From NCBI GenBank assembly GCA_051362555.1, contig CM120645.1, forward strand, positions 21,204,001 through 21,268,000: a stretch of DNA of 64,000 nt, given 5' to 3'. Position numbers and translations under genes: made by a program. The notes below the pieces were generated by a model. That model had not been told where the DNA came from. It searched no databases and was given only the letters and a program-made list of their open reading frames with translations. Positions 29,679-64,000 of the stretch are shown piece after piece. Numbering within the stretch: position 1 is the stretch's first letter; each line of letters begins with the position of its first letter. Source of the DNA: Lingula anatina (lineage: Eukaryota > Animalia > Brachiopoda).

Positions 29679-29754
<76 letters not shown>

Positions 29755-30254: not shown

Positions 30255-30305
<51 letters not shown>

Positions 30306-32015: not shown

Positions 32016-32096
32016 GAAGAATATGCACATAATTAATATGCGGCCCTTGCACCCTCTACCATGCAGGGCCGCATATTAATTATGTGCATTTTCTTC
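32016..32096. repeat. Near-perfect inverted repeat (about 35-bp arms, about 10-nt loop)
   Basis: GAAGAATATGCACATAATTAATATGCGGCCCT..AGGGCCGCATATTAATTATGTGCATTTTCTTC. Confidence 0.9.
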
Positions 32097-32894: not shown

Positions 32895-32904
32895 GGGATT
32901 TCCC
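32895..32904. promoter_or_regulatory. Consensus NF-kB site upstream of the DED-CARD gene
   Basis: GGGATTTCCC matches GGGRNNYYCC; motif match only. Confidence 0.45.
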
Positions 32905-36004: not shown

Positions 36005-36048
<44 letters not shown>

Positions 36049-36936: not shown

Positions 36937-36995
<59 letters not shown>

Positions 36996-37598: not shown

Positions 37599-37878
37599 CT
37601 TGCAGATCTTGTATTCCGTATGAAGTGTACAAGTGGTCAGTCTGAAGAGCTGCAGGTAGAACTCCAGCTTTTATACATACTTAACATAATAACTGTGAAT
37701 CACTTCAGGTTTAAAATATACACCTGGAAATAACAGTGACTAATGGGGAATTGGAAACACCTCATAACTTTGAACAATGGCTCAATTACTTTTCTTTCTT
37801 CGCCACTTCAGACCCAGCTCAGTCCTAAGCATAATATCAAAGGAATATTGTTGAAAAGAAAAATAATGTGTCATCCAC

Positions 37879-38327
37879 TTTCACTTTCTCATCAGAAAAG
37901 AAGGTTGAATTGATTTCTTTTGAATTTGATATGACTCTACTGCATATTGTCACAAACTTTCACTTTCTCATTAGAAAAGAAAGTTCAATTCATTTGAATT
38001 GGAAGTGACTCGATATTGTCATACCTCAGGAACGTGTTTTAATTAACCTCAGGAAAATTGTATTTAAAATATGTTAACCAAATATACTATTTAACATAAT
38101 GAGATAATAAATTAATTAACATTTAATTGAGAAAATGAAAGTACAGCTATATATAATAATATGAATTTCAAAGCAAATATAAATACATGGTTGAATTCAC
38201 TCATACAAATGAATATACATGTAAAATTTTGTTGAGTTTGAATCGACTATCAATTGTAAGGAAATCCCAACTGAAATTCCTTGATCCAAAGCAGATATAT
38301 GTTCTTACATGAGTCCCAGGTTTCCCC
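37879..38327 (-). promoter_or_regulatory. Cluster of IRF-like and kB-like motifs upstream of caspase A
   Basis: GAAAGTGAAA on the minus strand at 37879-37888 and 37958-37967 (within a ~79-bp tandem duplication); GGGATTTCCT at 38259-38268 and GGGGAAACCT at 38318-38327 (minus strand). Motif matches only. Confidence 0.4.
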
Positions 38328-41023
38328 TGTACTAAAATGCTTGAAACAAATGCACAAGTGAAAGGCATAAAGATAAAGAAGATCTTTGGAAGAACAAAAT
38401 AAGTAAGATCTCAAGGAAAGATAAATCCTTTTTGTTCACCTGGTAGTTCTACCAATGAAATTGAACTACTTAACATTGTTCTGTAACGCTGATATTTTAT
38501 GTTTTCAAGGGTATTTGTTTAGTGTTTAAAATCAGCACACAGAGAGATGCATTATTGAATAATTAGATTCAGGTAAAGCCACATTTTTTGGTATCTGGAT
38601 GATAATATAGGCTTTGTAACAATATCCTTAAAAATCAAAATTTAATAAAACATTGAATCCAAGTGCAGAAGTAGGTAGAGCAATGATTCCCAAGTAGAAA
38701 AAAAAAAATTATCCCCAAGGAAAATTTGTTTTGGTGGGACTATCTTGTATAGATTACCTCAGATTAAAAAAAAAAACAAACAAAAAAACAAGAGCATTTG
38801 ATTCATTTGATTCTGATTTATTTGATACATTTTCACGTGTGGAATCACATTTTTTGAAAGGCTAATCTATGCTTAAATCATGATGTTACATACATGAAGA
38901 TTTACAGTAACCTTTGCACGTACATACCATTCATGAAGACACAGGTAGTAATCATTTCTCACTAACACTTATAACCTATTGTAGCCCTACACATAGACTG
39001 ACCCTTTTATTCCACCAAATGGACCACTTGTTGCAGTAACCTACTACAGTAGCCCCAAGTTTTCCAAGCTAATTTGGGGCAGCTTCTTCATCTTCAAATA
39101 AATTTCCATCCACAACTGCTTGTCAGTAATAAAGCATGTACACACGGAGGTTAAAAAATGAATATTTTGCCAGCAAGCATTGGACCTGAGGTTTAGGCAA
39201 TCAGTACTAAAAATATCTCAAATCAAAATCAACTGTCTCTTTTGTAAAACAAATTAAAATGTTTCCCCCCTTGGTGTGTTTATCCTTTTAAGGGCACTGC
39301 ATTTAACATATTACTTCTGTGATCAAATAAATCATATCACAGTGATGACATGAAGTCAAAGCTTTTCCCTGTATGACACACACGTACTACCCCAGTAGTT
39401 TCTGGATTGTATCACAATAATTTATGTAGTGACCCATTTTTAAACCAACTTAAAGACAAATACATAAAATAGTGTGGACTCATCAAAAGACTACAGTCAA
39501 ATCATATGCACTCTGGCAGAAGTCCACACAGTATACAAATTATAATTACAGTGACTAATTATATAATGCACTGACTCTTAAGGATTGTGGAATAGCTTTT
39601 CGTTAAAAGGTGTAACACAAATCAAAGGATCTCTTAAGTTATTATACTATCCCAGGTCTCATTCATCCATAAAACATAAAAAATGGTACACTGCTAATTT
39701 TGATGTGTCTCCTTGTTTGAAAAAGAGGTTGTTTATAATCTTCTGGTATTATGAAATTCAATATTGTACATTTTGCCAGTTACTCTACACAATAACATTA
39801 TGAAACAATAACAATAAGTAGACACACCTAAGCTGAAACACAAATCTACTGGTTTATGAAACAATTTCTTTTTAAAATATATTCTGTACCTTAAAGTCAC
39901 TGTAAAACTTGTAGATCTGTTGATTTTTTTTTGTGACACCAAAGAAATTAAGGAATGTTTTTTTTAGCCTGGTTACTGTAAAAATAAACTATAAACAAGT
40001 TAAGGACAAGAGCAGATCTGAAATGTATAAAATGTTGGATCGCCCCTTCACCTTGAGCACCTTAACCAAAGTGGTACATATGGAATAACCTTACAAGCCA
40101 CATCCAAGATTTTGCTACAGGGGTGGGAGTTGTGGGTGGGGGGTAGGGGGGGGGGGGGTGCTGTGCTTGGCAAGTATACAGTAGTTGAAGAGGACAATTT
40201 AACTAAAATATGCAGAGCACAGGGATAAAGAGTGCTTGACCATGCTTCTTTTCACTTGTAATACTGTTTTTGATGGTAAAATGAAACTATTTTAACATTT
40301 AAATATTGTTTTTTTTTTTGTTTTCATGGATGAGAAGGGGGTGCATGCTCACTGTGGACCCACCCCTGGGTCTGCTATTGCTAGGAAAAAGTAAATTCAT
40401 TGTGACAAAGTACAGTATTATATCACCAAAAATAATTGCACAAAGAGAAACAAAATAAAAGAATCAATACACTGTGGGGTAAATCTTTCTACTGAATGGC
40501 AAAAACTTAAGCAGATCTATTACTTTCCTTTCTCATATGAATGTGACTGAAACAGTCTTGCCTCTTTGAATCTGACAAAAATCTTCCATTGCATTGATTA
40601 TCACAACACATGAACAATGTGGAAATGATTACTGATAATATTAAGACCATAAATGAGCTTCTAAATCTTATCCACTGTACTTGCATATAAGGTTGTGATG
40701 GGACCACCCTGCCTTATCACTGATTGTTTAATATTGAATACTCTCCGAGAGCATATGAGATCATTTTATAAGGTTATTCTTTAAAAGTTTATCATACTGT
40801 CATGACATTTTTTAAAGAAGAGTCATCACCTGTATCTTTCACCAACTGAAATTTTTTGAAGGTTTAATAATAATAATAATGTTGAAATCCTGATTTTTCT
40901 TCCAACCCAAAATAACTTTCCAATTTTCCAAGCCAATTGTGCACCCTGAAAATGATTAAAAGATGTTGAAATACTGTCCTGTTAATATCCCATCCTGGGC
41001 ATTTACCAAGGGCCTGGGTGCTC

Positions 41024-41368
41024 TTAGTGTTTTGGCCTAAAATATACCAGCTTGGTTAACATGGAGGTTATACATGGAACCTGTTTCTTTTTGCTCATTG
41101 CCTTGGAGGCTGCATTGGACTCAAACTCGTATGCCACTTTCCTGTTAACAATGGTCATCAAGCTTAGGATGTCCAACTGTTGGCCGTAGTCTCCCAGGAC
41201 CTGAATGAGTGCCTGCATGAACCAAGATCCGTTCATGGAGTTACGCCAGGAAAAGAAGCCTGGAAAAACATTCAATTATGTCTATAACATTTGCCAAGAA
41301 GAAGGTTATCTTTTCATTGGTGTTGGTGTGTGTATGCTTATTTGTCAGTGGACATGTGTCAGGATAAA

Positions 41369-41407
<39 letters not shown>

Positions 41408-43310
41408 AAACGTTTTAAACTAAAATCGGGTCTCCTTCCAGGATATTTTAACATAAATTCTACTTTATAAGTTGTCTTTTTGCTTAGTGGAGTGTTCTCT
41501 AGTTTAATATATAATAAACATAACCAGTATATCATATCAGATTCTGTAGATTTTGTTTATTATTGTCAGTCACAAATCTTTGTACAATTATTGCTTCACC
41601 ATTTCTCTCCTTTTTCTCTTTTAACAGTGGGACACATAATGTTGTACAGGAAAGTTTTTTTGCACACAAATGTATATAAACATTTATTTTTTTTAAATAA
41701 ATTTTTTAATCTCAGGCATTTATCAACCATACCTACCTGGCACCACAGAGTAAGCAATGAGGAAGTCTGCCTCAGCAGGAATTCTGTGCACATGGGTCCT
41801 ACCGTCTGGTTCGTCTTCCCACATTTCTGCATCAGCGACCTCTACACCTCCGTCAAGTTTAGTGCCTCGACAAGCCTGCAAAATAAAACGGAGTGTGTAA
41901 ACGAAAGAGGAATCCTGCTAGTCCAAGGCAACTGCATAACTTGGGACATTTCGACATCAGGAAATTTGTTCAAGTTAGGCGAGATTCATATTAATGCAAC
42001 ACTGGCACTACAACAAATGTATTGTCCTTTTAAGTATTTATTCCAACTGATCTTACACAGAAAACAGTACTTTCTTCATGTTTGATCACTGGTGTATCTC
42101 TCCCTAATTAAGCGCAAAAGGCTTTTTATAGTATAGGGTCACATGTCCCATGCGCTAACACCAGCTATACATATTCATTATATCCATTTACCTACTATGG
42201 TTACTTATACTAAGACCCCATTCCCAGAGATTAGATCGATCTAAACTAGATAGACCTAACTCCCTGGGGGTTCATGCTACATAGCTGTCAGCCGAGCGGG
42301 CACGAAAGTAAATTACCCCCTTACAGCTTGTAGTAGGCGGGACGGACATTTAAGCCAGATTATCTGACAGTAATCTAGTGAGACTCTCCACAGGGATAGA
42401 TCGATCTAAATGTCTGGGAATACGCCCTAAGGTTCAATGTACTATTACATAATACAAACATGTGAATACCCTATTGCATTAATTTATACTAATACCAAAG
42501 GAAAAATCGTTCACATGATATTTGTTTGAGATGAATGGAAATTTGAACGATAAATAAAGTAATTCTTTTAGATTTGGAACAATACTTCTCTGATGCATAC
42601 TTATCAAAAAAAAAAAAAAAAAAAGTGGAATGAAATTTAAAGGCACAATCCAAAGTGCAAAGTAAATCAAAATAAAGAATATGATTTTTTTACCAATACA
42701 AGAAAGTATGTTGTTTAAAAAATGTCCAAGAAATTTAAATTATCAGAAAAATATATAACACAGTTGTGAACATTTATTTTTATCTCCAAACAACTTGGTC
42801 CATTTGCCTCTAATTTACAAACATTCTAATATTTGTGTATGCGCCACATCCTCCCTCAACATACTCAATTTACAAGAAATTTTCTTGTGTTTTCAATAGC
42901 TCCATAAATATAACCCATACTTTCTCAAAAACAACAAGCAACACTGACTCAACTCAGGGGCGGATTTAGGCCATCTTCTGGGTCTTCCGGAAGACGGTCA
43001 GATTTTTAAGTTTACATTGACGGGTATCTATTATTTTCTGTCGGAAGACGGTCAAAAATTGAGGACGAATTAACAAAGATTATTTGGAAGACTGTCAGAA
43101 AATATCTCTGGATCCGCCCCTGCAACTAACCTGAATGAAAATGAGCTTTGGTTTCCCTGCTAAAGTCAAGCATCTGTCACCCTTGAGAGGGGCAAGTAGC
43201 TGATCCACCTCTATAATGCCATCTGTGCCATACACTTTTCCCTCCTCACCATGTGACAAAATTACCAAAGCCACACAGTCATTTTGAGAGTGATTTCTGC
43301 GTCCAACTGA

Positions 43311-43350
<40 letters not shown>

Positions 43351-44751
43351 TACCATTTTCAAATATTCTATATTTTTTCATATTTTACTCTTTTCAAAAC
43401 ACTCTTTTCATATTTTTCCAAAGGAAAATAAACTGCAAACAACCTCATTCCAGAGATACAGAAAGCAATTCTGAAAGCATATATGTGGTAAAAACTTCCT
43501 GCAAGCTTGAGGCAAGACACTCAAGTTGGAGTTGAGGAAAGAATTATTTAAAAGTATGTATACAACCAAGGTTAAAGGGAAACTGAAATAAAGGTTAATC
43601 TTTCAAAAATTATTGTACAGTGTACTAAGTGCACCTTTCTTTTACTTGATAATGATTTCCTGCAGATACTCTGTTGATGTGATCATATATCAAGAGACTC
43701 ATGAAGGTAACATAAAAATTACATACTGAGAGACACCCTAATTGCTAATTATTAATCACTATCTAGAAAAAGATGCAAGGAACTGGCTGCTATGAAGTAC
43801 GAAAACATATAACTTTGTGTAAAAAGTTAAAAGTGCGCTTACTTCAACAGATATAGGGTAAATTGCACAAAAACAAGATTTCATTACTCCGTACCTTCGG
43901 CCATAGTCATTGACATCCTAGAACAAGTCACATTGTCATAGCGATTCACATCAAATCCCAGCGCACGAAGTCTGTTCTCAATCCCATTTGCATCCTGGTC
44001 CGTGCCGCGTCTCTCTGCCATACCTGTATGTGACGCAAAGTTGCGGTTGTTGAAAATGATGGCAAGGCCCCTATTTTCATAAGTCATGGGATATTCCATA
44101 TCGTGGTCTCCACTGGAACTAACTTGCTGTGGCCTGCCTGCCTCTGGAGCAACTCTGAGACTGTAAACATTGGAAAATCTCTATAGAACTGTATGTTTTC
44201 TATAGATGGAATATTAGGCAGAATTACTTATATCTTGTAATTTGATATACTTGATCAAAAATCCATTATAACTGTATATATTGTAACTATAAAGTGTCTA
44301 CAAAGTATAAATTTAGGAATGATCTGGGTGAATATTGTATCTATATCACTTGTATTATATTGCATCTTTTAAAGTACCAACATTGCATCTTTATAATAAC
44401 TTCCCAGAATCTGTATTGTGCACATAATGTATCTTTAAAATAACTATGTTGTATCATATGTAAACTACATAAAAATGTCTATATTATTGTTGAGTGATCA
44501 ATAAATACCCTCTTCTACTGAGTGGTGCATCAGTGATGTCCCCATGTCCTGAAATGGTTGAAAGAAAATATCATCTGTCTGACTCTGTCTTCTAGTGACT
44601 GAAGTTAACACCCAAATGACCCGGCTTTTTTATTATTATTATTATAATTTTTTGGGGGAGCAGGCCCTTTGATTGCAATACTTATAACGTCAATGACCAG
44701 TTAAACATTTATAAGTGAAACACAAAGGAAAGTACACACATGGAAGAACAG

Positions 44752-47291: not shown

Positions 47292-47930
47292 TTGTAAATG
47301 AACAGTACGTGATGCCCAAATATTTCACTTTCGCGACTTCTTAACTGACATGCGATAAGCCTAACGGCAGGCCTACTATACTGTAGTGTAGGCCTACGTG
47401 TAGGCCTACTGTACAGTAGGCCCTATAGCACAAAGTGGATTATTGAAAAACAAAAATAAAATAAAGAACGAAATATTCACTACAAGCATGATTTTATTCA
47501 AATCACATGACAATGGTGCAAATGTCTGACATAATGTCCTATTCAAAATGTTTCAAAATTACTGATAGGCCTACCCAGGGATAATTTCATAAATTCTGAT
47601 GTGCCGGCCAGTATAAAAGTAGGCCCTACAGTACGCGGTCCTCTGGTAGAAGGGAAGAATTTTCTTTGAAGGATGAGTAATTCGATATCAGAAGGAATAA
47701 ACTGTTTTTTACTTGACTGGTTGCAAATGGATCGACATGCTGTGTTCGGTTCTGAAAATACAATAATTGTGTAATTAAAGTAGGATTTATCGAAGTACAA
47801 TGTAGGTCCTACATGCAGGCCTATGTTTAGAGGTAGGGATTAACTTTAAACTAATCGATTTTTAGATTTCCACTCGTTATGTTACGTGCATTTTATTAGG
47901 GTCTACATTCTCTATTAAGACCAGGAGTTA

Positions 47931-48035
47931 CAGACCCGTAGCCAACAATTTCAAAAGGGGGGTTCTTATTCTGAAAAAGTGGACCTTTTACCATGAAACC
48001 TTTCGAACCCCCCGACCCCCCTGGCTAAGGGCCTG
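47931..48035. mobile_element. MITE family D copy, 5-bp TSD
   Basis: TSD AGTTA at 47926-47930 and 48036-48040; the paralogous intron near 59155-59165 lacks the insertion. Confidence 0.85.
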
Positions 48036-48231: not shown

Positions 48232-48717
48232 TCAAGCTTTATTGTTGAGCAGGTCTTGAAGCTCAGCGAGCTCCTCCTCGGACATCCCATCCAACTCATT
48301 GTCCAGTTGGTTACTTTCAGCGTCCTCGGTGTCCGCAAAGATATCGTGATTGAGCCGTTCTGAAATAAGGAGATGTTTGGTTGAACTGGGAGTATATTTA
48401 TGTGAGTAAAATATATTTTTCTAATTTTACACACACATCGAAGCACACGAACATTACTCCAATGAAATTTAAGTGGAAAAGATGCAAATGTATGTTTTTT
48501 TTTTCTTTGCTAATTCAAGAGACCTCGGACTGTCTTGGATGGTCCCCTTATACAGTTTATATTAGCGTAAGTTACCAGTAGGCGGCGGATAAAGGGCTAG
48601 CTTTGTAACACACCAGGGAATTAATGAAAATACTGGGGCATCCGAGGAATGTGCTCCTGCTACCATTGAAGGTACAAATACTAATATTACTCCCCTCGCC
48701 CCCCCAAAAAAAGGTAA

Positions 48718-48752
<35 letters not shown>

Positions 48753-50599
48753 GAGGGGGGGCAGAACGAGAGAACACCCCCCCGCCCACACCGTACCCTT
48801 CATATAACAGTTTATTTGTCCTGGCCTACCCTTTACTAGTATATTTGCCGTGATTTTTTTTCTTTTTTTTTATTCCTCTTTAACAACTTTCAGCTCAAAG
48901 TGAATAAATAAACGATAAGGACATAAAACTTACCCCCTAAGAGGTTAACCTTAGTTTGAAAATTATCCAACTCCTCCTGGTCCACGTATCCATCCTCTAG
49001 AAAAAAAATTATTCAAGTTATTTAACAATAATTTTCAAATAATGTGTAAACAATTGTGAAATTGAAATAAACATTCCAGGCACAATTTTATGGGACATAA
49101 AACTAAAACTTGCAAACTTAACTTAAACTCCATGTGTCTTTTTCGTGTTTATAAGGATAATGATCACTTTTTGGACAGAGGTTCATGCAGGTAATTTTTT
49201 TAAAAAACGAGGCGACATATGTAAGAAATTTGAAAGGAAAACAAGAAAACCGATAAAAAATTAGTAAATCAACAAAGATGAAAGGAAGAAGGTGAGGTAA
49301 TGACGTAATGCTTTTAACTTGGGTAACTACTTTACCGTTGGTGTCGAGTTCCTCCATCGCTTCGGGATCCTTCACGTCGTGCAGTGATATCTTGCCGTCG
49401 CCATCCAAATCATTTAACATAAACTTGGAGTTGTTTTCCTGAAACGTACATGTTAAGAAAATCAAAACGCTAAAGAGACTGATATCAGTGGAGAAATACC
49501 GAAAGAACTGAATGAGAAATAATTTGATTTTCAATAATCTCAAGGTGACACTTTGTCCATAACATTTTCAAAAGCGATTTATTATAAATTGCGCGAGCGG
49601 AGACGAACGAATGGCGATTGATGCAATGCATTAGGTGAGCTTCACAGCCGATTGCGTGTTTTTCTCGTCGGGAGGGCCGGGGGTGGGTGGGGTGGGGCTG
49701 TTACGTGTTCCCAAGCTTTGGAGCTACTTGTACAATCCCCCCTTCCTTCCAGTATATGTATTACAAAGGACAAAACCAATCAATTTTCCATCCTTGTGCA
49801 CTACATATTACAGTGAATCTATCCGCATCTTCCATTTTCATTTGTTCGACAAGAAAAATAAATTTAAAGAAAATTCTTGTGTACCCGACAGTCGCAACCA
49901 TGTCTCCGCCTTTAGCAAAAATCGCCAGAGCAGTCATTTCTTATGGCAGGAAACGTTTTCCATTTCGGAATTATGGAGTTTTTTTAAGGGTAGCGGTTTG
50001 GAAAAGCAGTTTTATCCAACAAACGCCTGCAAGGGGTATACTAGTAAGTCTGAATAGATTAAATTCTCTTCTCCCCACTACCCCCCTCCCTTTACCCCGT
50101 CTCAATTCAAAACCAATCATAAATATCTGTGAGTACTTACGTCTCCGGCTACTGCGACCGCAGCTTTAATTGCCTTGTAAGTTTTGACAACTCTAACCAC
50201 CCTCCTCACTACTCTAACGGCCCTGGAAACATGCATACACTGTATATTGCAACCGTTGATATCGTTTGATTAACAAATAAATGTATCGAATAAAGAAACA
50301 AATTGATTATCTATCAATTTGTGACGAAAAATGAAAAAAGGTAGGTTTTAGCCAAAGTTGTTTATCTATTATAATTTGTAAATGATATGCTTAATAAATT
50401 CAGATTTTATGGCTAGCTGTAACAACAAAAGAAGTTATTTTTGTCTTGCACTCAAATAAATGCTTTGAGTTTTTTGTTTTATCGTATATTGAAATATGTT
50501 TTACCTTCTCCAGACTCTTCGAAGTCGCCAACTTTCTCCATCCTGTGGCATAAGGGCCACGAAAAATATCAGAGCAAAAAGACAAAATGCCAACTTCAT
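48232..50599 (-). CDS. Secreted precursor: signal peptide + cationic amphipathic (antimicrobial-like) peptide + acidic double EF-hand domain, paralogue 1, 156 aa
   Basis: Exons 50599-50505 (MKLAFCLFALIFFVALMPQDGES-WRLRRVWR), 50222-50141 (R-AVRVVRRVVRVVKTYKAIKAAVAVAGD), 49438-49336 (ENNSKFMLNDLDGDGKISLHDVKDPEAMEELDTN), 48996-48934 (EDGYVDQEELDNFQTKVNLLG), 48359-48232 (ERLNHDIFADTEDAESNQLDNELDGMSEEELAELQDLLNNKA*); phases 2,0,1,1; 471 nt. Probable 5' UTR exon ending at 51549 and 3' UTR exon from 47751 with AATAAA at 47493-47498. Confidence 0.85.
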
Positions 50600-51645
50600 G
50601 ATGATCTTCGATATCTGAAAAAGTATTGACTTAACATGTATTCTTCGAGTTTATATGATTTGAAGGATAAAATTACACACAAAATAATTTTTGCTGCAAT
50701 TCAAATGTACCCTCCCCCCAAAAAAAATCCAACTAGGCCATTGGTGCTGATTTAATTGAAAATCTTTAAAAAATCAGAATAAGGAGATTACAACATATAA
50801 AAAAAAAAACGATCAATGTCACTGAATAAGGCCTAAGCAGACATTTTTTCAATCTGTAATGAAAGACACCAGTCTTTCTGGTATAAGAAACACAAATTCT
50901 TCACCTTTTGAACTGTTTCCTATTTTTAAAACGGCATCTATTATATCATCTTTATATGCAGACACTGTGTGGGTCTTTGAGTGGTTTGATCACTGTGTCT
51001 GTCCGTGTTATTGCTGTCGCCATCCGAAACATCAGTCCCCGTAACTGCCAAACCATATTTTTGCTTTTCTTACATTGAGTGGCTTTGTTTGGTTAAAAGG
51101 GTTGCTCGCGAAAATCAGCATGATCGGATTGTACTTACAAACGTCACTGATTTTTAACGTGTAACCCATAAGTGCCAAACCGTATTTTTTTTCATTTTTC
51201 TTCAAATTTGCTGAGTGGCTTTGAAGTTTAATGAGGCATGTTCCTTCCGAAAATCAACACGTATGGTTTATGAAAGTAATGCAATTTTATGTTATGTTAT
51301 ATTATCTTATGTTATGCTATGTTGTGTTATTTATTTGTTTGTAAATAATATAACAATGTGATTTTCTGTTTCGTGTCCGTGTATTTGTCAGCTTTGCTGC
51401 CTAATCTTTTATTTCTTTTGGCAAATAGTTAATAGCCTTTTTAAAATCGTTCTAAGATACATTAAAATCAGGCGGAACAATAGGCCTACGGTACTGTTGA
51501 ATATATGCAGGATTGATTCTTTAAATAATGTTAAAGAAACGATCTTACCTTAGCAAATCAAGATGGCCTAGAGAGCGGTAAATCGTATTGGCAGATCCTA
51601 CAGTCGCAGAGAACCACAGTATGTGGAATGGTTTCCGTCCACCAA

Positions 51646-51777
51646 CTTTATACTGTAAAAGTCGTGACTTTCTCAAACTTATCTGATCAGGAGAGCAGTG
51701 CCACTCCACGATTCCTTTGTTATATTTCCAGAAAAATGGGACTTGCCTCTTTCACAGAAGCAGGTCAAACTGATAAG
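51646..51777 (-). promoter_or_regulatory. Putative core promoter of the peptide/EF-hand paralogue 1
   Basis: TATAAAG at 51646-51652 (minus) about 100 nt upstream of donor AAG|GTAAGA at 51547-51548; GATA motifs at 51678-51684 and 51771-51777; one-mismatch kB-like GGGACTTGCC at 51738-51747. Confidence 0.5.
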
Positions 51778-52413
51778 ACTATTGATTGCTGGGAATCATA
51801 AATTCTCTGAATAATACGGACAACTGAATTTCGAATAAACTGTGTAGAGCATTATCAAGGTCATATGGTAGACACGATGCGCCAGTGTTATTTTCCATTT
51901 TAGATTTATTTTGATGACCAGGCAATTGACGACTGGGGAAGTAGGAGGACATCAGAAAACGTGACTCCGTTGCGTTTTAATTTTTAACAGATGTTTATAG
52001 CAATGAGAATACAAATGTATTAGGTCTTTGTCGTCGAAATTCTGGTATCAGCGAAGTAATACAATTTGATATATCATAAATAATTGAGAGTGACACTGTT
52101 TAAAATTAACCAGTACAAAATAAGATTTTCATTAGTTATTCTTATTCTCTACTTTAAACTACTTCGCTACTGTCCAGCGAGAATTTTTACATGGAATCTA
52201 TGAATACTGAGTACTGGATGGCATTAATGACATCTTTTTTAAAAGTGTCATCATGAGTCATGAAATCCATGTGAGACTCGTAAGGGGTCGAACTTCTGTT
52301 CCGAAAACGGACACTGACCACAAGACCATCAAGTCAGTGTCTAGAAGCGGATGGGATTAAAAGAGGAGGTATAAGAGAAATGCAGGGGGTGGTATCCGCC
52401 TTAAAATTGACCC

Positions 52414-54000
52414 ATCTTATGTAAGAAAACTAATTTTTTACCCCAACAACCGAGATAAAATAAGTTTTAGTACAGTTAACAGTGAATATTATGTTACATA
52501 CATTTCATGCATAAATACAGTTATTTTATACCTGATCTATTTTGAAGATATCGGCGACACTGAGAAGATAAAAGATTACCGTGAATGCAATATTCCTAGA
52601 ATAAAAACAACTGTTACATTTGCATTTTGACTCACCTTGTGGGGAGTATTGTCAAGGTAATGGGGGAATCCGCTGCTCGACTTCGATGGGCCTTTAGTTC
52701 AGTTCAGTTTAGTTTAGTTTTGTTTTGTTACCCCCGCCAGGGAAATTTAGGTATTCATCTCCGTTTGTCACTTTTCTTCTTTTTTGTGGTCTTTTCTTTG
52801 TCACCAGCCTAACTGTAAAAGTTACGGATGAATTTAGATGAATGTTTCAGAATAGGTATTAAATGGGCTAGCGTAAAAGGAGCACGGGCATTTATAAGTA
52901 ATACACGAAAAGAATTTACTGTTAAATATAGACTCAATGGGTTGGAAAAATTGCTCTGTTTTGTCTTCGGGGTTAGTAGGCGAAATTTCCATTTGTGATC
53001 TCGAGCTGCGGATTTGTGATTTGTGAAGGACTGGTTCGGCGTCCAACCCCCCCCCCCCCCCCCCCCCCCCCCAATCTTCAATTGCCTGAAGACCCAGAAG
53101 ACGGCCTCAATCCGCCCCTGCATCTTATATAAGAGAACTATCTTTTACCCCAACAACCGAGACAAAAAGGTTTTAGTGACAGTTGACGGTGAATATTATA
53201 TAACATATATTTCATCCAAAAATGCGTTTATTTTATACCTGATCTATTTTGAAGACATCGGCGACACTGAGAAGATAAAAGATTACCGTGAATGCAATAT
53301 TTCTAGAATAAAAACAACTGTTACATTTGTATTTTGTCTCACCTTGTGAGGAGTATTGCCAAGGTCATAGGGAAATCCGCTGCTCGACTTCGATGCGCTT
53401 TCAGTTTAGTTTAGTTAAGTTACGTTACCCCCGCCCTTGGACATAATAACGGAATTTTGTCCATGCCCCGCCATGGAGTTTAGGTATTCACCTCCGTTAT
53501 TCCATTTTTTTCTTCTGTTTTTTTTTTATTTTGTTTGTCACCCGCTTAACTCTAAAAGTTAGGGATATATTTTTTTCAAAGTTTCAGGATAGGTTTTAAA
53601 TAGGCCAACTTAAAAGGAGCACAGGATTTTGAAAGTGATAAACGAAAACAATTTTACTGTTATATGTAGACTCACTGGGTTGAAATATAGCTTTGTTTCA
53701 GTGAATATAGTGTATAATAAATTTCATGCATAGATACGTTTATTTCATACCTGATCTACTTTGAAGACATCGGCGACACTGAGAAGATAAAAGATTACCG
53801 TGAATTCAATATTCTTAGAATAAAAACAACTTTTATATTTGTATTTTGTCTCACCTTGTGAGGGGCATTACCAAGGCCATGGGGGAATCCGCTGCTCGAC
53901 TTCGATGTGCTTTTAGTTTAGTTTGTTAGGTGGGTAGGCCTGTTATTGGCGAAATTCCCGTTTGCAATCTTTAGCTATGGATTTGTGATCGCGAACGAGT
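52414..54000. repeat. Three diverged tandem copies of a composite repeat unit (transposon-derived)
   Basis: GAAGA[TC]ATCGGCGACACTGAGAAGATAAAAGATTACCGTGAAT...GAATCCGCTGCTCGACTTCGATG occurs near 52543, 53251 and 53763, interleaved with a second module that recurs at about 63225-63480. Confidence 0.85.
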
Positions 54001-54613
54001 TAAACTTTGATTTTTATGGTACAAACAATTTTTATTAGAATGGAAAATTACTACTACGAGAAAAGGTGTCCCCAAAGATACCCCTGAAAGAGGGGTGGGG
54101 GGGGGGCACAGAAAATTGTGCGTCCTGGATTCGCTACTGATTTTAAATGTGTCTAGATGATGTTAAGAATCACTTTAAAAAGCCCAATTGCAAGTGCTTT
54201 AATCTTACATCACTGAAAGTGGGCCATATTTACCGTTTTGTACAAATCATCCTGTCCCTTTTGGAGCCTCAATTCAAAGCACGTGTTCAGCCAAGAAATA
54301 GTCTGCGCTATATTTCAGTTCAGTAAAAACATAGGAGAAAAAAAGATATTTGTAACGTAGTATTTTTTTTAGTGAATACTTCCGCATGTTCATGTAAACT
54401 AAGGTTAATATTATTCTCTATACTTGTCTCCTTAAAAATTCGATGAAAGGGATGTCAGGCTATTTGAAATGTGAGGTCGTTTTCGATGATATGTGTGAGA
54501 TGGAATCTTCCTAAGTGAAATCTTATCCCAAAACTAAGTCTCAAATTCCTATATACAGAGCGTTGATTTATCACTCATTCTTGTGTTAGTGGTACACATC
54601 GAAATCATTTATA

Positions 54614-54833
54614 CACACACTGGACAATAGAAGTGTCACCCCTACTGAACCAATACTTTGGGGGAGATAAATGACTGCTCCTGGCATCATTTTATTAATT
54701 TTCACAAAAAGACCAAAAATACAATTCCATGGTACAGCGGTTTTATACTCATTAGTCACATTATAAGTAGACCAGGCATTATAACTTTGATTACTCTGAT
54801 TCAAGGGGTGACACTTCTGTTGTCCAGTGTGTG
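54614..54833. mobile_element. Tc1/mariner-type MITE (TA TSD)
   Basis: TA-CACACACTGGACAATAGAAGTGTCACCCC...GGGGTGACACTTCTGTTGTCCAGTGTGTG-TA. Confidence 0.85.
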
Positions 54834-54936
54834 TAAGTTGCTTTATTGGCGTATAGTAAAATCACTTCAACAAAAGTTTGGCTCACTTCATCTTCAACGT
54901 CTGACCCCAACCCAGAACCGACCACAGAGAGAGATG

Positions 54937-54970
<34 letters not shown>

Positions 54971-56079
54971 GGAGGAGGGGGGGGGAGAAAAAAAGAGGGA
55001 GGGAAAGAAGAGAGAGAGAGATGAGGAGAGAGAGAGTGATAGAGTGAGCAGTCATCATAAACGAAAGATATAATGGTTTTCAATTCTTTAAGCAATGATA
55101 ATATCAAATTATTTAAGAAAAATAAACTGAAATTCATGATGAACTATCGGGATGTCGCTGCATGAAATGTAAGATTGGAAGGCATTCAAGGAGCTCAGAG
55201 CAAATGTTATGCATTGACAAAAATCGTTTAATCTCTTTTTATACATACACAATGTACGTTTCTGGTTAACAACATACCAGCATTTGTCTTCTAAGCGGCT
55301 TGTGGCCATCCGTGAAAGAAGCCCTAGTTAATTTGTTGTCATAAACTAAGAGTGAAAAGGGGAAAGTGCACGCACCGGGATGCCGTATTGAAAAGCAATA
55401 CAAAAGTTACTTGCAAAACATAGAACTTTTAAATTACTGTTGTGCAAAAGACTGAAGCGAAGTCGAATTTAAGAATATACCCATAGATGCCCTCTCTCCT
55501 TCAAACTCAGTTTTATTTGACGCCAAGTCGCCCGACTTTGGGCTTTCTCTGGTAATTGTCATTGTCGAATAATATGAAAACATAAAAGTATCTGTGTTAA
55601 ATTTTTATTCATTAAGAAATGTAAACATTTTTTTGCTTTGTTTCTGATATATGTGCAAAGTACGGTGACTTGTAGGCCAATGAAGCCGGGTGATTTGTAT
55701 ATCTATATCACATGTCACGTTAATAAATAAATACTATACATACGTTTTTATCAACCCATAAAAAGATAAAAATTAAGTCTGATCCATCATACCTTTTCCA
55801 GATACACAAAAAACGCATGAATCTCTCATTTATCAGATCATTTGACGTTATTTTATCGCTTCGGACATTGAAATTGCTGTAAGCCAGTTCTTTCTGAATT
55901 TAGAAATTAATTAGTTGATTTTTTTAAATTTTGGGTCATGCATTGTATAAAATGGATAAAAACAGTGAAATGACAGCAATGGGGTCAAAATAGAGTCAAA
56001 TTGATCGCTAACTGCATTTAGCCCAGTGTCAAGTTGTCATTCTTTTTGCCAGCTTTACTTTATACAGCCACTTCTCTTA

Positions 56080-56305
56080 GGGTGCTTTCCCAGAGATTTA
56101 GATCGATCTAAAGATTAAGATTTAGATCGACCTAACTCCCTGGGGGTTCACGCTAAGTTGCAGTCAGCCGAGCGGGCACCATAGTTAATTACCCCCTTAC
56201 AGCTTTTAGTAGGCGGGACAGACGCTTAAGCCGGCCAAGCTGACAGTAATCTTGTGAGACTTCCCACAGGGATAGATCGATCTAAAAATCTATGGAAATG
56301 GGGTG
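56080..56305. mobile_element. MITE family C copy
   Basis: TTA flanks at 56077-56079 and 56306-56308; collinear with 20850-21064. Confidence 0.82.
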
Positions 56306-56846
56306 TTATATCCACGCGTATACAAACAATCGTTTTTATGGCATTAACATCCGCGTTACTGGCACACACCAAAGTTCAAATTGCAGCCCCACTCCACGTC
56401 ACGCATATGAACTTGCGTTTCTATGATTAATTTCAATATTCACTTCTTTATCAACGGTCACTGATTCTCAATATATATATATGTCTATTGACCATTTAAA
56501 AATATTAAAAGTACGAGGGCGAAAGGTTTGTTTGTCCAAGTGGAACTTAAACTACAGTACATCAGTCTAGCAACTTAAAGTCACTGAAAAACTTATCACT
56601 AAATTTATCTGTTCTGACAAAAAACAAACAAACAAAAATGGACAAAATATAAAACCTTTGTTACTGTCGCTCTCAGCACCATCTCACATACTCCAATCCT
56701 TCTATTTTATTTTCTTCTGCAGTAGAAAATATGCAACTTTGCAGGAAGCGAGTATGAAGTCTATAGTCTCAGAAGTGATGCTCAAATATTTTTCGCTTTG
56801 GATTTTAACGGCTTCATACACGTAACTTAAATTGCCTACCAGTAGG

Positions 56847-57205
56847 CCTACACTGCAAAGTGGATAGTTAAAAAAGAAACAAAAGAAACAAGCAAAATAG
56901 TAGAGAGAAAAAAAGAGAACACCGATGGTAACCAATGCATCACACGTCGACTCCTTCGGCAATGTTTCAGCTCCGTCAACCCTTTCTTTTTCATTGATAG
57001 GGCTTCTGAACGTTGCCTGTTCCTCAAATAAAATTTTATCCCCACAAGAAGAAATCAAATTTTTATTCCTACGCTGCAAACTGGATAGTTATAAAAAAGA
57101 AATAAAAGAAACAAGCAAAAGAGTAGAGAGAAAAAAAGCTAAGTGAGAACACTGTACATAGTCATCCACTACATCACACGCCGACTCCTTCGGCAATGTT
57201 TCAGC
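56847..57205 (+). repeat. Direct duplication of about 130 bp
   Basis: CCTAC[AG]CTGCAAA.TGGATAGTTA...CGACTCCTTCGGCAATGTTTCAGC at about 56847-56971 and 57068-57205. Confidence 0.8.
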
Positions 57206-59345
57206 AATGTTAAACCAGTGGTATGCATTTCTTCTTTGCTGTTTTTATGTTTAAGCCTGTACTTCAAATAAAATGATTTGCTTCCTTAGTTTTTTAAATA
57301 TTGTTTTGAGTATTATCAAATAATAATACAGCATAAAGATTTACATTTAAACTGCTTGGCTTGTATTGTTTTTTTTTTTAATTTCAGTTATGCTGCTGGG
57401 AGAATATTTTTGTACAGAATTTGCTTTTAGAGAATCTAAAAAAATTAAAATAAAAGTTTAAACAAATAGAACATGACAAAGACATCTCTTGTTATGTAAA
57501 ATATGACTGAATTTTTTTCTCACTTTAATTGCTTTTTTATGATTCATTTCAGTTTAACAAGTGTGGCAAGAGGCAAAGTAAAGAAATTTCGTTCCAAGGT
57601 CTTTCACTGCCAGGTCAATCAATTGCCTCTACATCAAGTCTGATTGCACTGGAGACCCAACCTTCTGGGAATGTCACTCCGCCAATCACACGAGGCACAG
57701 GTTTCTGCTTTAAGAGTACCATACTATACTCAGCATTATGGGAATAGATGGGAGAGGATGAGGGGAACCGCATATTCAAAAAACTTAATCAGTATGTATT
57801 TGCAAGAAGTGCAACGGAGAGTATAAGACACCAGCACAATCTGGTAGACTGGTACTGTTGTGAGACAGACACTGCATCTTTTAGGGACATACATGTACAT
57901 CAATATGTATACGGCATGATATTGACATTGATCATATTTATCTTATGGCCTCAAAGTTTTTTTAAAGTGCCTGAATGGCATGATAAATATTGTCAGTAAG
58001 AAAATAAAAATATTTTATGTACAGCAGCTTGACATCTCTTGTATGTATTAACCAGAAGTTTTAACTGCCAAACTTGTGTGTGATTTGAGGGTGATTGGTC
58101 AGTTAAAAGAGAAGAGCATCACCCAGGTACAATGTAGATCCATGACAGAGTTTTTGGTTTAAAGTCGCATGTGTCGAGATTTTGACGTGTTTCCTCGGTT
58201 ATCCTGAGTTCCTGAGTGCTCTTGTTTTTTTCCAGCAAAATCAAATACTAATTAAAAGACAAATAGTTTTTAGTTTTAAAAAAGTTAAAAATATTCCGAT
58301 ATTAATTGTCAAATCTCCTCTGTTATCATAGAGACTGATCGAATCTGAAAATCGTAATTTTTGCCCTAAGCATGTGAACTTTTTTTACTGGGTATGATTT
58401 ATTATTAGTTGTACGAGCATACATGTTAATCAATGTCTTTCATTATTGTTTTTATCTTCTTTTTTCTCACTTATTTTCTATTTTCAACTCTTATTTCCTT
58501 AATCTTAACCTTTCCTTTCTTTCTTTCTTTTCAATCTAAACCTTTTCTTTCTTTCTTTCTAGGTCTCTTTTTTACTTTCTTTCATATCCACTGTCTTAAT
58601 TTTCCTTTCTTACTGTCTTTATAAATGAATGGTCGGCGATGCCCAAATATTTTTACTTTTGCTTTTTGGATATAACTTTATTATCCTACTTTTAGGCCTA
58701 TACTGCAAAGTGGATTGTTAGAAAAGAAAACAAACAAACAAAATTTCAACACTAGCATGATTTAATTCAAAACAAAGGGCAGTTAGGTAAACGGAAGACA
58801 TACAGTGATGGAAAATGTCGTATTCAAAATGATTAAAAAACTGATACTTTGAATTTTTACAAAAGTTCTCGTGTACCGGCCAGTAAAGGCAGTTCTCTTG
58901 TACACTTTCAGGATTTCCTTTAGAATGGGTAACACGATATCAAGAGGAATACTTTTCATTGATTGGTTGCAAATGGTTTCGCCCGTGTTTTGGCATGCTG
59001 TGTTTGGCCCTGAAAATAAATAAATTAACTGTGTAATTCAAGTAAGATGTACCGTAGGCCAAAGTTTAGATGTAACTTTAACCTAATTGTTTTTTTTTTA
59101 GATTTAGACTCGTTTAGTTACGTGCATTATTGGGGCCTACATTTTTATCAAATCCATGATTAGAACAGACTACGTTTTCTTCAACATCTTACAGAGCAAC
59201 TGCTATATACCAGCGACGCATACATGTATATACAGTAGCTACAATTATGCATATCAATTAATGCTAGGAATCAAAAGGGTTACATTTGATTTTTCTGATA
59301 AAGAAAGCGCGCTGTCTTGACATTAATTACGTCTATAATCACCTT

Positions 59346-62097
59346 TCAAGCTTTATTGTTGAGCAGATCTTGAAGCTCAGCGATCTCTTCCTCGGTCATT
59401 CCAGCCAACTCATTGTCCAGTTGGTCACTTTCAGCGTCCCCGTCGAAGAAATCCCGATTGAGCCGAGCTGAAATGGGAATCGTTGAAATGGAAGTATATT
59501 TATGTAAGTGAAGGCATATGTTTTCATATTTTACAAATCTAAGTCCACGAAAATCACTGTGATGAAATTAAAGTGAAGAAGATGTGTTTTTTTTTGCTAA
59601 ATCAAGGGAATTCGGCTTGTCTGGGATTGTTCCCGTTTTCTGAGCGTAGTGAGGTGGCGTAGAAAGGTCTAGGGTCTGTAACACATCAGGGAAATAATAG
59701 AAACAATGGCGCATCCGAGGTTCGTGGTCCACTAGCTTCAAAGGCACCTCTAATGTTTTTATAAGGAAATAAAAAGTGAATATGTTCTCCCTCTCATCTT
59801 GGATCAAGAAATTGCTCACTTATTATGTGAGAAGACCAACTGACTTTTATTAACATCTCTAAGCTCGATTGAAATTCTTTTACAAAATAGATTAATAAAT
59901 GAAAATAATAAATAGGAAAAACTCACCAGCTACGAGGTTAATCCTAGTTTGGAAATTATCCAACTCCTCCTGGTCCACGTATCCATCCTCTACAAAAAAT
60001 AAATTTCCAAATGATTTTTTACATCATTACCAGATAAAGTGTAAACAACTGTCGCATTGAAATTAATGAACCTTTTAGGTAAAATTTATGTGAGATGAAG
60101 CTGAATGATCATTTAAATTGATTCTCAGAGTTGTCAAATAATTGCAAAAACTTACACTACCAACCTGTCGAAAATCGGAGTTGAATTTTCTTAAACTTGT
60201 GTACTTCAAACATAACTTTAACCACGAACATCATTTACGTGTTAATGTAAATAATGATTCACTCTTGGGCAGAGGTTCATTTAGGTAGTTTTCAAAACCA
60301 AAGCAACGTATTTTGATACAAACGCAATAGATCTAAAAGGAAGACAAGATGGCAAATAGCAAAATAAATAAAGGAAAAAATAGGAAAGAGAGAAAAAAAG
60401 AGGTGAATAATGACGTTTTTTTTTTTGGATAACTACTTTACCGTTGGTGTCGAGTTCCTCCATCGCTTCGGGATCCTTCACGTCGTGCAGTGATATCTTG
60501 CCGTCGCCATCCAAATCATTCAACATAAACTTGTTTTCCTGAAACATACATTTTTACGAAAATTAGAACGCCAAAGAGGCTATTATCAATATATATATAC
60601 TATATATATATATATAATATATATACTTTGCCCATATCACTTTCTAAAGTGTACAAACGGTTTATTATAAATAGCTCCAGCGGAAACGTACAAATGGAGA
60701 TTGATGATTCATTGCATTAGGTGAGCTGCTCAGCAGATTGCGTTTTTATCTTCGGGAGGGGGTGGGTCTGTTACGTGTCCTCAAGCTTTGGAGCTACTAC
60801 CCCGCTTGCTTTCCAGGGCATGTATTACTAAACGAGACAAAACCAAGCAATTTCTCACCCCTGTGCCTTACATATTAAAACAAATTTATCATCGTGTTCT
60901 ACGTTGCTTTGCTCCACAAGAAAAACGAGAATAAAGGAAGCATTGTGTACCCAACACCCACTTCTAGCGCAGTCATTTTCATTGGAAGCAAACGGATTTT
61001 TAGACATTTTGTGAAGGAAAGGAGTTTGGAAGATTCAACCAAATATCTCCTGTTAAGACTTCCCCAAGAATCCCTACCCCCCGGCTTATTATAAAACCAT
61101 ACATGCTTATGAATACTTACATCCGCGTTTGCTTTGATCACCCCTTTGACCTCGTTGAAAACCTTGATGACTCTTTCTACCCTTTTCACCAACCTTTTTG
61201 TTCTGGAACATTCATGTATCTCAATTGTTGATATGTCTACATGGGGCAAATATACTACTCAAAAGAAATAAAGGAACACCCGCCATTTAAGATGCAAAAG
61301 TTTGAACCATGCATAGTGTTATATAGATTTAGCAATTCTAAGAAAAGTCATCATTCTGTGCTGGGTGACTATTTAACTTAAACCGTTTTGTAATTAAAAT
61401 AAACTTTGCACTCGTTAAAAGAAATAAGTATGATTACCTGTTGGGGTGAAAGGCGTAAAAATCGGATAAATTTATTCTCCCCCCCCCCAAATTCCTGGGG
61501 TTTAAACCCAGGTGAAAATTGGGACTTAAATGAATGAGTAGCATACTTTTGGCATTAGCATGATAAGATAAGAAGAAATGAACGTTTTAAGTCTTTTGTC
61601 TCATAATTACCTCCGCCAAGGAGGTTATGTTTTCCCCCCTGTTTGTCTGTCTGTCATCAACATAACTCAGAAAGTTATGGACCGATTTTGATGAAAATTT
61701 CGGGAACTGTCAGAAGTGGACTGAGGAACAGATGATTAGTTTTTGGTGGTGATCCAAATCAATAATCAATCAATAATCAAAAATATCGAAAATTTAGGGA
61801 TGAAACGGCATTGGATGGAGACTTGGCGGAGGTATGCGCTCTCTGAGTGCTTTTCTAGTTTGTAATGCTACGCCTTGTTTATTCAGATTTTGGTTGCTAG
61901 CTGTATCAAAATTAAATGTCAAGCAGTCTTCCTGTGCAAATGAATACTTTGTTTTTTTATTTTGTCATAAAATGTATCACGTTTTACCTTTCCCAGACTC
62001 TCCGAAGTCGGATTCGAATTCGCCATCCACCTTCTCCATCCTGTGGCAGCAGGACCACGAACAACATCATAGCCAAAAGACAAAATGCCAACTTCAT
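59346..62097 (-). CDS. Secreted precursor: signal peptide + cationic amphipathic peptide + acidic double EF-hand domain, paralogue 2, 157 aa
   Basis: Exons 62097-61988 (MKLAFCLLAMMLFVVLLPQDGEG-GWRIRIRLRRVWE), 61202-61121 (R-TKRLVKRVERVIKVFNEVKGVIKANAD), 60538-60442 (ENKFMLNDLDGDGKISLHDVKDPEAMEELDTN), 59989-59927 (EDGYVDQEELDNFQTRINLVA), 59467-59346 (ARLNRDFFDGDAESDQLDNELAGMTEEEIAELQDLLNNKA*); same intron positions and phases as paralogue 1; 474 nt; 3' UTR exon from 59009. Confidence 0.85.
61606..61860 (+). mobile_element. Non-autonomous Helentron/HINE-like element in an intron of paralogue 2
   Basis: Subterminal inverted repeats ACCTCCGCCAAG (61609-61620) and CTTGGCGGAGGT (61822-61833), GTCT microsatellite seed, 3' hairpin GCGCTCTCTGAGTGC and T-rich CTAGT end. 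Confidence 0.75.
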
Positions 62098-62931
62098 GGT
62101 GACTTGTGATATCTTAAAGAAAAGCATTTATTAAAAGCGCATTTAGAGGGTTTTAATGAGATAAAACTTCATGCAGAATAAATCTAGCTGCAATTCAGAT
62201 TAAAAAAAAAAGAATAGAGAAAAACAAAAACACAAAAACTTCCATCCAGTCCATTTGTCCTGGTTTTGATTGAAAATCCCTTAAAAATGAGGGCAAGGCG
62301 GACAACAACATAAGTACTTTCAAAACAGTCAATGTCACTGGGTAAACCCTTTTCATACCGGATGGAGCACCTATCTATTAGCGTATTTTTATTATACATT
62401 ATTTGTGCATAGAATTTCATGAATTTGTCACATTTTACCAGCTTTCAGGAGGTATATTTGCAGCTTTGGTATCGTTTATGGTCTTTATTCAAGAAACAAA
62501 ATAGTGCTGTGTCGTAAATGACCACTCCAGATTTCCGATATTTAAAAGTGTAGCCCATATTGTACATGGTATTTTATTCCTTTAATTCCACTCAAATTAC
62601 TAATTAGATTAAGCTATGGCGAACAAATACAGAACAATGAAATATTTGGAGAAAAGAAAGATCCGAAATATCTCAGAAGGGAAGAATTCTACTGATGAGA
62701 GTGATTTGGGTGCAACAGACCGAAGAAGAGGGTCACGTATTCGAAGTGCATGTGCTCATCGTGCACTTGTGACAGAGAGAGCAAGTGCTTATGATACAGT
62801 GGTTGAACATCAAGAATGGCAGCAACATTTTGCAACCAGATGGTGTGAGGTTTGTTAAATAAGACTTCAGAGGTCATGGCAAGGGTTCTTGAAGAGGTTG
62901 GTTAAGGGTGCGAGGCAGAGGAAGTGTACAA

Positions 62932-63088: not shown

Positions 63089-64000
63089 CGTAGAATATGC
63101 ATTAAAACAGTCGGTGAGCTACCGTAGAATACAAGCCTAATCTAATGACCCTTGTATGACAAAGAGCAACTGACTGCTGAAATGGAAACTTTTGTAGTAC
63201 AGGGACGAAACCAATACAGTGACGTTTGTTTGTCACCCGCCTAACTCAAAAAGTTGTGGATGGATTTTGATCAAATTTTCAGGATAGGTCTTACATGAAT
63301 TAATCTTAAAGGGGTACAGGTATTTCTAAAAGAGATATTCGAGTGCAATAACTCTGTAATAAATGGACAGAGCACTGGGTTGGAAAAATTGCTCGGTTTT
63401 GTTTTCAGGCCTCATAGGTGAAATTGCAGTTTGTGATCTCGAGCCGCGGTTTGTGATTGCGAACGCCGAAGTTACGAGTTGACCTGCGTTTTCATGGTGC
63501 GAACGCAAATGTCTACGTAAACAGCCACTTGACATCATAGATCAACAGCTACCGGGATACATGTATATACCATCTTTGTGAATGAATATCAGGTAAACAA
63601 CCAGTCACTAGTATTATCCCTCTAAGTTACTACTCTACGTATAGTAAAGGTCAGCTGAATGATGACATTAATTCTATATAAAATCTCACAAATCTTTGGT
63701 CACAAAGGAAAGGTGAACAGAATTCGCCCCTGACATATCTTTAAATATTATAATAAAAATAATTAAATTAAAATTACAATTTAATTGAAATTAATTTAAA
63801 AAAAATCGGTGACCCTTGTAGAGGGAATACACATGCAACCAGTTTGTTCAGTTCAAGGTGAACACTAGTTAGTATATGAATGGTGGATCTAAAATCATCA
63901 AATCTTTCCGTCACATCAGTAACACGGTGGTCTAGCTGAGATCTATAGAAAATATGCATCTGTCATAAAAATCTTTTGGCCACACTACCCAGGCATCTCT

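Follow-up and report, generated by a model that had tools for sequence, protein, structure and literature searches.

Tandem Lingula anatina genes for candidate cationic antimicrobial-peptide precursors with a compact EF-hand pair in the acidic tail

A 64,000-nucleotide stretch of the brachiopod Lingula anatina genome (assembly GCA_051362555.1, contig CM120645.1, forward-strand positions 21,204,001 to 21,268,000; hereafter the window, numbered from its first letter) carries two intact paralogues on the minus strand with ~11 kb between them, bounded by the stop of gene 1 at 48232 and the ATG of gene 2 at 62097. Both genes are real, expressed and intact. Judged from sequence features and analogy, their products are probably (at a probability of roughly 0.7) precursors of linear cationic antimicrobial peptides, with the layout of the ascidian styelins and clavanins and with an EF-hand pair in the acidic propiece. 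The layout, the conserved boundary before Asp, the concentration of divergence in the peptide exon and the existence of a gene family are all consistent with an antimicrobial precursor whose propiece is anionic. The arrangement of a multigene family in tandem clusters and the presence of spliced RNA from the correct strand likewise favour a defence peptide. An earlier, sequence-only reading of the region had proposed such a precursor; the layout it described is borne out in part by these points, while the likeness to cecropins that it saw is not. The precursor logic itself is common, and none of the records found characterises the family.

The sequence of the window is gap-free animal DNA with 35% GC. 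To obtain gene models, alternative splice-site dinucleotides (AG, GT) around the proposed ends of the exons were tried for open frames. Exactly one open model of >140 aa was found per gene, with GT-AG borders at every intron and intron phases 2, 0, 1 and 1 common to both, in agreement with the two five-coding-exon genes originally seen at 48232..62097. A non-coding first exon, known from RNA (donor at 51549 in gene 1), brings the total to six exons. The products have 156 aa (gene 1) and 157 aa (gene 2), and no third gene copy was found within the 64-kb window. Seven of nine Lingula-labelled RNA runs (designated by X numbers) were aligned to the gene 1 region only, using 6-30% of each run. The elements of the two genes are listed below.

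51647..51652, minus strand: putative TATA-like box upstream of the gene 1 non-coding first exon, the sole minus-strand TATAAA in 51550-51800
51549..51620, minus strand: gene 1 non-coding first exon, 5' end approximate; GT donor below 51549, fitted by three X8 reads
50505..50614, minus strand: gene 1 first coding exon, comprising 5' untranslated region (UTR; 15 nt) and coding part 50599-50505 from the ATG at 50599; equals the RefSeq record
50599-50531, minus strand: gene 1 putative signal peptide, residues 1-23; the first coding exon also holds the first 9 residues of the cationic peptide
50141..50222, minus strand: gene 1 exon 2, remaining cationic amphipathic peptide, with its Gly-Asp end at the phase-0 intron; two X2 reads, in frame to exon 3
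49336..49438, minus strand: gene 1 exon 3, EF loop 1 (residues 69-80, 49411-49376) and the first part of EF loop 2; joint 48996/49336 in five of seven runs
48934..48996, minus strand: gene 1 exon 4, remaining EF loop 2 (residues 91-102) and next helix; Pfam EF-hand_1, RNA joints on both sides
48232..48359, minus strand: gene 1 exon 5, coding part for the acidic terminal helix, with TGA stop; joint 48359/48934 in X1, X2 and X3
61988..62112, minus strand: gene 2 first coding exon, comprising 5' UTR (15 nt), ATG at 62097 (coding part 62097-61988), putative signal peptide and start of the cationic peptide; gene model and X8 reads
61121..61202, minus strand: gene 2 exon 2, remaining cationic peptide; length and phase as in gene 1 exon 2, 45/82 nt identical
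60442..60538, minus strand: gene 2 exon 3, EF loop 1 and the first part of loop 2; 99% identity with its gene 1 counterpart besides a 6-nt gap
59927..59989, minus strand: gene 2 exon 4, from the gene model and comparison with gene 1
59346..59467, minus strand: gene 2 exon 5 coding part with TGA stop, from the gene model and comparison with gene 1

A kappa-B-like site at 51738 was rejected as a match at chance level (214/1000 shuffles).

Family-wide measurements were made on seven full-length sequences, leaving out the isoforms P0153, P0157 and P0181 and the truncated P0002. Signal peptides were judged by hydrophobicity and the -3/-1 rule, with our own scoring in place of SignalP. All seven sequences have a signal-like N-terminus, with a hydrophobic core of 2.8-3.3 (11-residue window) and small residues at -3 and -1, and none contains a later transmembrane-like stretch or an endoplasmic reticulum (ER)-retention tail. 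Cleavage is predicted before Trp in gene 1 and before Gly-Trp in gene 2. The resulting peptide of gene 1 (residues 24-58, 35 aa) would contain 9 Arg and 3 Lys, no Asp, Glu or Cys, and carry a net charge of +12; that of gene 2 would have 39 aa from Trp (40 with the Gly), 9 Arg among the 39 and a net charge of +11. These values reproduce the residue counts of the sequence-only reading, and the net charge lies between +10 and +12 in all seven sequences. The basic/hydrophobic helical periodicity it described was borne out by shuffling: the best 18-residue hydrophobic moments, 0.74 (gene 1) and 0.70 (gene 2), were attained by only 1/5000 and 55/5000 shuffles of the same residues. Structure prediction with AlphaFold2 gave two models of low quality (mean pLDDT 54 and 42), with a helix over about residues 23-57 and an unfolded EF region; a helix over residues 24-57 is thus a prediction from modelling. 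A prediction of the complex between peptide and tail (score 0.13, mark 0.34) provides evidence in neither direction.

A peptide of this type could also be cytolytic or deterrent, formed by the same precursor logic and directed at eukaryotes such as fouling organisms, parasites or predators instead of bacteria. Styelins are also haemolytic and cytotoxic (PMC10608444). The physical features serve both targets, and 60% of the residues of peptide 1 are hydrophobic. High Arg content and low mean hydrophobicity, however, usually favour anionic bacterial membranes, and the two peptides are Arg-rich, with mean hydrophobicities of 0.14 (gene 1) and 0.09 (gene 2) in their best windows. Furthermore, we know of no venom organ in Lingula. 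A eukaryotic target appears improbable.

The switch from positive to negative charge coincides with a phase-0 intron, exon 2 ending in Gly-Asp (gene 1) or Ala-Asp (gene 2). The boundary reads DEN in all seven sequences and Gly-DEN in six, gene 2 being the exception, and none of the seven has a dibasic site beside it. The tail that follows in gene 1 has 98 aa with 31 Asp/Glu versus 6 Lys/Arg, an exact recount that agrees with the earlier estimate. Tails are 89-98 aa long across the family, with net charges of -25 (gene 1), -22 (gene 2) and -21 to -25 over the seven sequences; the precursors of both window genes are thus net negative.

Above cut-off, Pfam recognises EF-hand families only (best EF-hand_1 stretch 85-106 in gene 1). 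The two EF-hand loops originally reported are present, but they do not form an ordinary pair. In all seven sequences the loop starts lie 22 residues apart, leaving 10 residues between loops in place of the ~25 of a canonical calmodulin-type pair. Loop 1 ends in Asp in the window genes, where Glu is canonical and is found in the relatives; loop 2 has canonical ligands. Searches of solved structures returned weak generic EF-hand matches only, and the alignment to a solved EF-hand protein carries a 10-residue gap. The compact pair cannot fold like the EF pair of calmodulin or mytimycin, and it is unusual for an animal protein among the structures searched. Most matches of the cluster search, P0004, P0034 and P0145 among them, are mostly unnamed proteins with repeated compact EF-hand pairs; the loop spacing is 21-24 residues in 141 of 148 non-family matches, one of which matches lanmodulin at E 7e-5. 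Nine of these records that were inspected are un- or generically named and mostly of metagenome type, but the scoring favours repeat proteins, and we make no claim of a horizontal origin of the pair.

Comparison of the two genes shows that divergence is concentrated in the peptide exon. Nucleotide identity is 55% in exon 2, 99% in exon 3 and 88-91% in the other exons, with introns at 67-75% over aligned columns. Differences affect 36/81 nt in the peptide exon versus 33/348 in signal plus tail (Fisher p 3e-12), and exon 2 divergence exceeds even a 70% intron-like identity rate (p 0.004; gapped intron identities run high). Length, frame and net charge of exon 2 are nevertheless kept despite 18 changes in 27 residues, and the hydrophobic/polar pattern is kept at 20/27 positions, as in only 177/20000 shuffles. 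The survival of these properties argues for function. Within a second subfamily, too, no part varies as much as the peptide (53-69% versus 84-98%). Across the two subfamilies conservation is highest in the EF region (57-61%), and the peptide fares no worse than the signal or the end.

Gene 1 is identical, letter for letter, to the L. anatina RefSeq protein XP_023930851.1 (P0001), 'uncharacterized protein LOC106172683'. The sole record returned for gene 2, XP_013420536.1, has 112 aa and is devoid of signal and peptide: its first 19 residues derive from intron 2 (60855-61034, minus strand) and its last 93 differ from gene 2 at two places. This N-terminus is likely an annotation error that hides the signal and peptide exons of gene 2. 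The forecast that automated annotation would offer an EF-hand protein at most was accurate, RefSeq having 'uncharacterized' and Pfam seeing only EF-hands. The gene class is thereby hidden by annotation.

A cluster search over 1.84 billion representatives yielded 496 matches, the best 150 of which include one further full-length relative, and a profile search three more clusters. At least seven RefSeq loci, all from Lingula, belong to the family; this count is a lower bound as it derives from protein databases. The proposed tandem family is larger than the two genes originally seen. LOC106180903 and 106180904 share a 223-kb scaffold and show five differences from gene 1; given that the Lingula genome is 1.6% heterozygous (PMC4595640), they are likely the other haplotype of the window pair. 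LOC106179443, 444 and 445 share a 422-kb scaffold, and LOC106181207 is also a member. The sequences suggest about five distinct genes in two clusters, forming two well-separated subfamilies. The second subfamily is marked by a Trp-Pro-Arg-Ile start and by two cysteines in the peptide, so the description of the peptides as Cys-free holds for the window genes but not for the whole family. No full-length relative outside Lingula was present among the matches listed, from searches that are weak for short divergent proteins and possibly cover few related genomes.

The layout is shared with the ascidian styelins and clavanins and with Ciona Ci-MAM and Ci-PAP, which likewise consist of a signal, a cationic amphipathic helix and an anionic C-terminal proregion. 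In styelins and clavanins the cut falls before D and DD, and the Ciona precursors comprise signal, cationic helix and anionic helix (PMC7387483). Their boundary, as in Lingula, is marked by acidic residues without a basic processing motif (PMC7387483). Measured against the styelin/clavanin/Ci-MAM layout, the Lingula proteins have the signal peptide and an anionic proregion that starts from Asp without a dibasic site; the Cys-free cationic amphipathic helix is found in the window genes, not in four two-Cys relatives. The N-terminal Trp is also shared, and is brominated in styelin D and centrocins (PMC10608444). In contrast to the Lingula tail, no EF-hand is mentioned for the ascidian peptides in the available part of PMC7387483, and profile and cluster searches gave no sequence match between the two groups.

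For the EF-hand, the precedent is mytimycin, whose precursor has an anionic C-terminal extension with an EF-hand of role stated to be unknown (PMC8004829). The Lingula tail matches it in this respect. The mytimycin peptide, however, has 12 Cys followed by a dibasic site (PMC8004829), whereas the Lingula peptides have 0 or 2 Cys and are not Cys-rich. The EF loop starts of mytimycin are ~35 residues apart (counted by eye), compared with 22 in Lingula; given this different spacing, the two tails are probably separate recruitments.

Myticalins, with conserved ends and a variable middle (PMC5577615), also share with Lingula an Arg-rich linear peptide (23-42 aa in myticalins) between a conserved signal and an anionic extension, Arg exceeding 10% of the variable central peptide in the window genes (9/35, 9/39). 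Their first exon holds 5' UTR only, as in Lingula, and some start similarly with W-P-R or R-L-R-I-R-I (PMC5577615). They differ in having a Lys-Arg site, three exons, a peptide contained within exon 2 and no predicted secondary structure (PMC5577615). In Lingula, the Lys-Arg site occurs in 0/7 sequences, there are six exons and the peptide is split by a phase-2 intron. No myticalin EF-hand is shown in the available part of PMC5577615.

The proposed cecropin likeness is without profile support, and cecropin identity was rejected in the absence of any cecropin profile match. An anionic C-terminal proregion is shared with nematode cecropin P4, where it measures ~30 aa (PMC2834666) and is reported to inhibit the mature peptide (Ueno 2008, via PMC2834666). 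Closely spaced EF-hands are also found in bacterial lanmodulin, with 12-13 residues between hands and a disorder-to-order change on metal binding, typical calcium sensors having ~25 (PMC10232371). The Lingula loops are closer still; they number two and have no Pro at loop position 2, unlike the four EF hands of lanmodulin with Pro at this position in at least one loop. The family profile matches lanmodulin only at E 0.46, and there is no reason to expect lanthanide selectivity of the Lingula pair. Identity of the family with the cecropins, myticalins, mytimycins or lanmodulin was rejected, as it lacks defining features of each.

Each element thus has precedent, the layout in ascidian peptides and myticalins and the EF-hand in mytimycin. 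The combination of linear helix, Asp boundary and compact EF pair was not found described in the literature searched. Gerdol et al. 2018 (Dev Comp Immunol 82:7-30, on Lingula immunity) reportedly proposes candidate Lingula peptides, and there is about one chance in three that it covers this family already.

Spliced reads were found at three of the coding joints. The exon 3-4 joint is covered by reads from X1 (4), X2 (11), X3 (1), X8 (5) and X9 (1), and the exon 4-5 joint by reads from X1 (4), X2 (6) and X3 (1). Two X2 reads span the exon 2-3 joint, with the expected four letters between and two synonymous changes relative to gene 1. The coding-exon depth of X1-X3 consists wholly of first mates on the plus strand, which fits a minus-strand transcript, as in most stranded libraries. 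X8 transcripts are of gene 2 type: all six listed exon-1 differences match gene 2, and the letters preceding its ATG stand at the joint with the non-coding exon. Agreement with gene 2 at only two of four differences in exons 4-5 points to another allele. Three X8 reads link the gene-2-type exon 1 to a non-coding exon fitting 51549 upward; with no second copy of this exon in the window, gene 2's own probably lies beyond 64000. In X2, the letter of gene 2 at 49415 (exon 3) is seen in 6/6 reads, while two reads enter a gene-1-type exon 2 (50141-50222); either an allele or an exchange of sequence between the two genes may lie behind this mix. Short repeats at 47930-48030, 51040-51130 and 51357-51403, which belong to neither gene, attract many reads of other transcripts.

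Several observations weigh against an antimicrobial role. No antimicrobial family profile matched P0001 or the signal/peptide exons, short peptides being easily missed: Pfam gave no family for 4/4 single signal/peptide exons at E up to 10, and for P0001 at E up to 1 it gave EF-type and unrelated weak families only. Pfam presumably holds cecropin, styelin and clavanin models. In the four two-Cys relatives, amphipathicity is no better than that of shuffles (89 to 266 of 2000). Exon 2 has a dS of 1.42 and a dN of 0.53; synonymous sites are as affected as non-synonymous ones, so its divergence is no proof of positive selection, which we do not claim with dN not above dS. Homogenisation of the tail exons by gene conversion is an equal explanation of the divergence pattern. 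Expression is low (at most 11 reads per joint in ~12 million records, joints in 5/7 runs), and X4 and X7 gave no splice-joint reads at the gene 1 region. RNA had been suggested as a check of the junctions; it joined exons 2-3 (in frame), 3-4 and 4-5, but no read in the seven runs joined exons 1-2.

On the same side stands an R-x-R-R site early in the peptide of all seven sequences, by which the mature form may be shorter than proposed. It would suit a precursor of hormone or neuropeptide type, or else a secreted protein that binds calcium and whose basic part is only a sorting or pro-segment removed at this site. Low read counts are compatible with such a role, as is the top look-alike in Atlas searches, 'allatotropins-like', although its score of 0.78, above which nothing was found, is one that shuffled proteins often reach. 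We consider this quite unlikely. Convertases disfavour Val, Leu or Ile after the cleavage site, and one of these follows R-x-R-R in every sequence. There is no repeated or conserved short peptide, and an amphipathic pattern kept through 18/27 changes would be unexpected of a discarded spacer.

The tail provides the remaining counterarguments. Its charge is twice that needed for neutralising the peptide and the EF region is the best conserved part of the family (57-96%), which suggests a tail function of its own. A secreted matrix or biomineral protein could act whole, its basic helix anchoring to polyanions or phosphate and its EF tail handling calcium in apatite shell, chaetae or mucus. Every shell proteome compared, that of Lingula among them, contains EF-hands (PMC13425148), and calcium-binding proteins are proposed to act in Lingula shell formation (PMC4595640). 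However, the precise coincidence of the charge switch with a phase-0 intron and a Gly-Asp motif is better suited to a cleavage site. Furthermore, the RefSeq accessions and locus ids of the family that were searched are absent from one PMC13425148 supplement, which gives Lingula shell proteins by RefSeq id and in which a control id gave 18 matches; this is a weak argument from a single proteome, the authors warning that low-abundance shell proteins are missed (PMC13425148). A matrix role seems a long shot.

For the favoured antimicrobial precursor, we infer all steps beyond gene structure. The precursor would be secreted and its signal removed before Trp or Gly-Trp, the acidic EF-hand tail masking and likely neutralising the peptide until cut off. 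By analogy to styelins, clavanins and the Ciona peptides, a protease would cut before the Asp of the conserved Gly/Ala-Asp boundary. The ascidian peptides also suggest that C-terminal amidation may occur where Gly precedes Asp (6/7 sequences, not gene 2), and that the freed helix would disrupt anionic membranes. Most speculatively, the compact EF pair might bind Ca2+ and fold the tail, with calcium tuning storage or release. A normal EF-hand would already be loaded at the calcium levels of the secretory pathway and of seawater, so the role of the pair may simply be to fold or condense the precursor, not to switch it.

A more far-reaching proposal, which we regard as doubtful, is a brachiopod-specific antimicrobial family with a metal-sensor propiece: a lanmodulin-like EF pair would fold on calcium and switch the peptide between clamped and released states, and peptides of either kind (Cys-free helix or two-Cys loop) would be interchangeable on the conserved tail. 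If true, this would be a second, independent pairing of EF-hand and defence peptide in lophotrochozoans, and a simple system for settling the role of such tails. With its linear peptide and separable EF tail, the family would allow an easy test of what the EF-hand of mytimycin does. Brachiopods are not mentioned in two reviews of marine-invertebrate peptides searched (PMC13518417, its first 300,000 characters, and PMC10608444), so the family would open a phylum with short, directly synthesisable natural peptides.

Just downstream of the peptide genes lies a cluster of cell-death/immune-signalling exons (28915-44180, minus strand), with the following domains.

28915-29265, minus strand: CARD, in the exon cluster
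30913-31239, minus strand: DED, just below the Pfam cut-off
34361-34678, 36435-36713 and 43887-44180, minus strand: caspase domains, in the exon cluster

Together with duplicated blocks at 34314-36044 and 40984-43350, the caspase domains indicate at least two tandem caspase genes. On the plus strand, ~900-19870 holds a large gene for an extracellular or membrane protein, mucin-like in our own reading; its many exons include VWD-like (below cut-off), EGF, calcium-binding EGF and thrombospondin-1 ones. Between the peptide genes, a unit of 225-580 bp occurs three times in tandem at 52413-53931 (80-88% identity), each copy with short conserved blocks ending in GT (minus strand) that resemble small exons by eye. 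Part of this unit is repeated at 63225-63458, upstream of gene 2.

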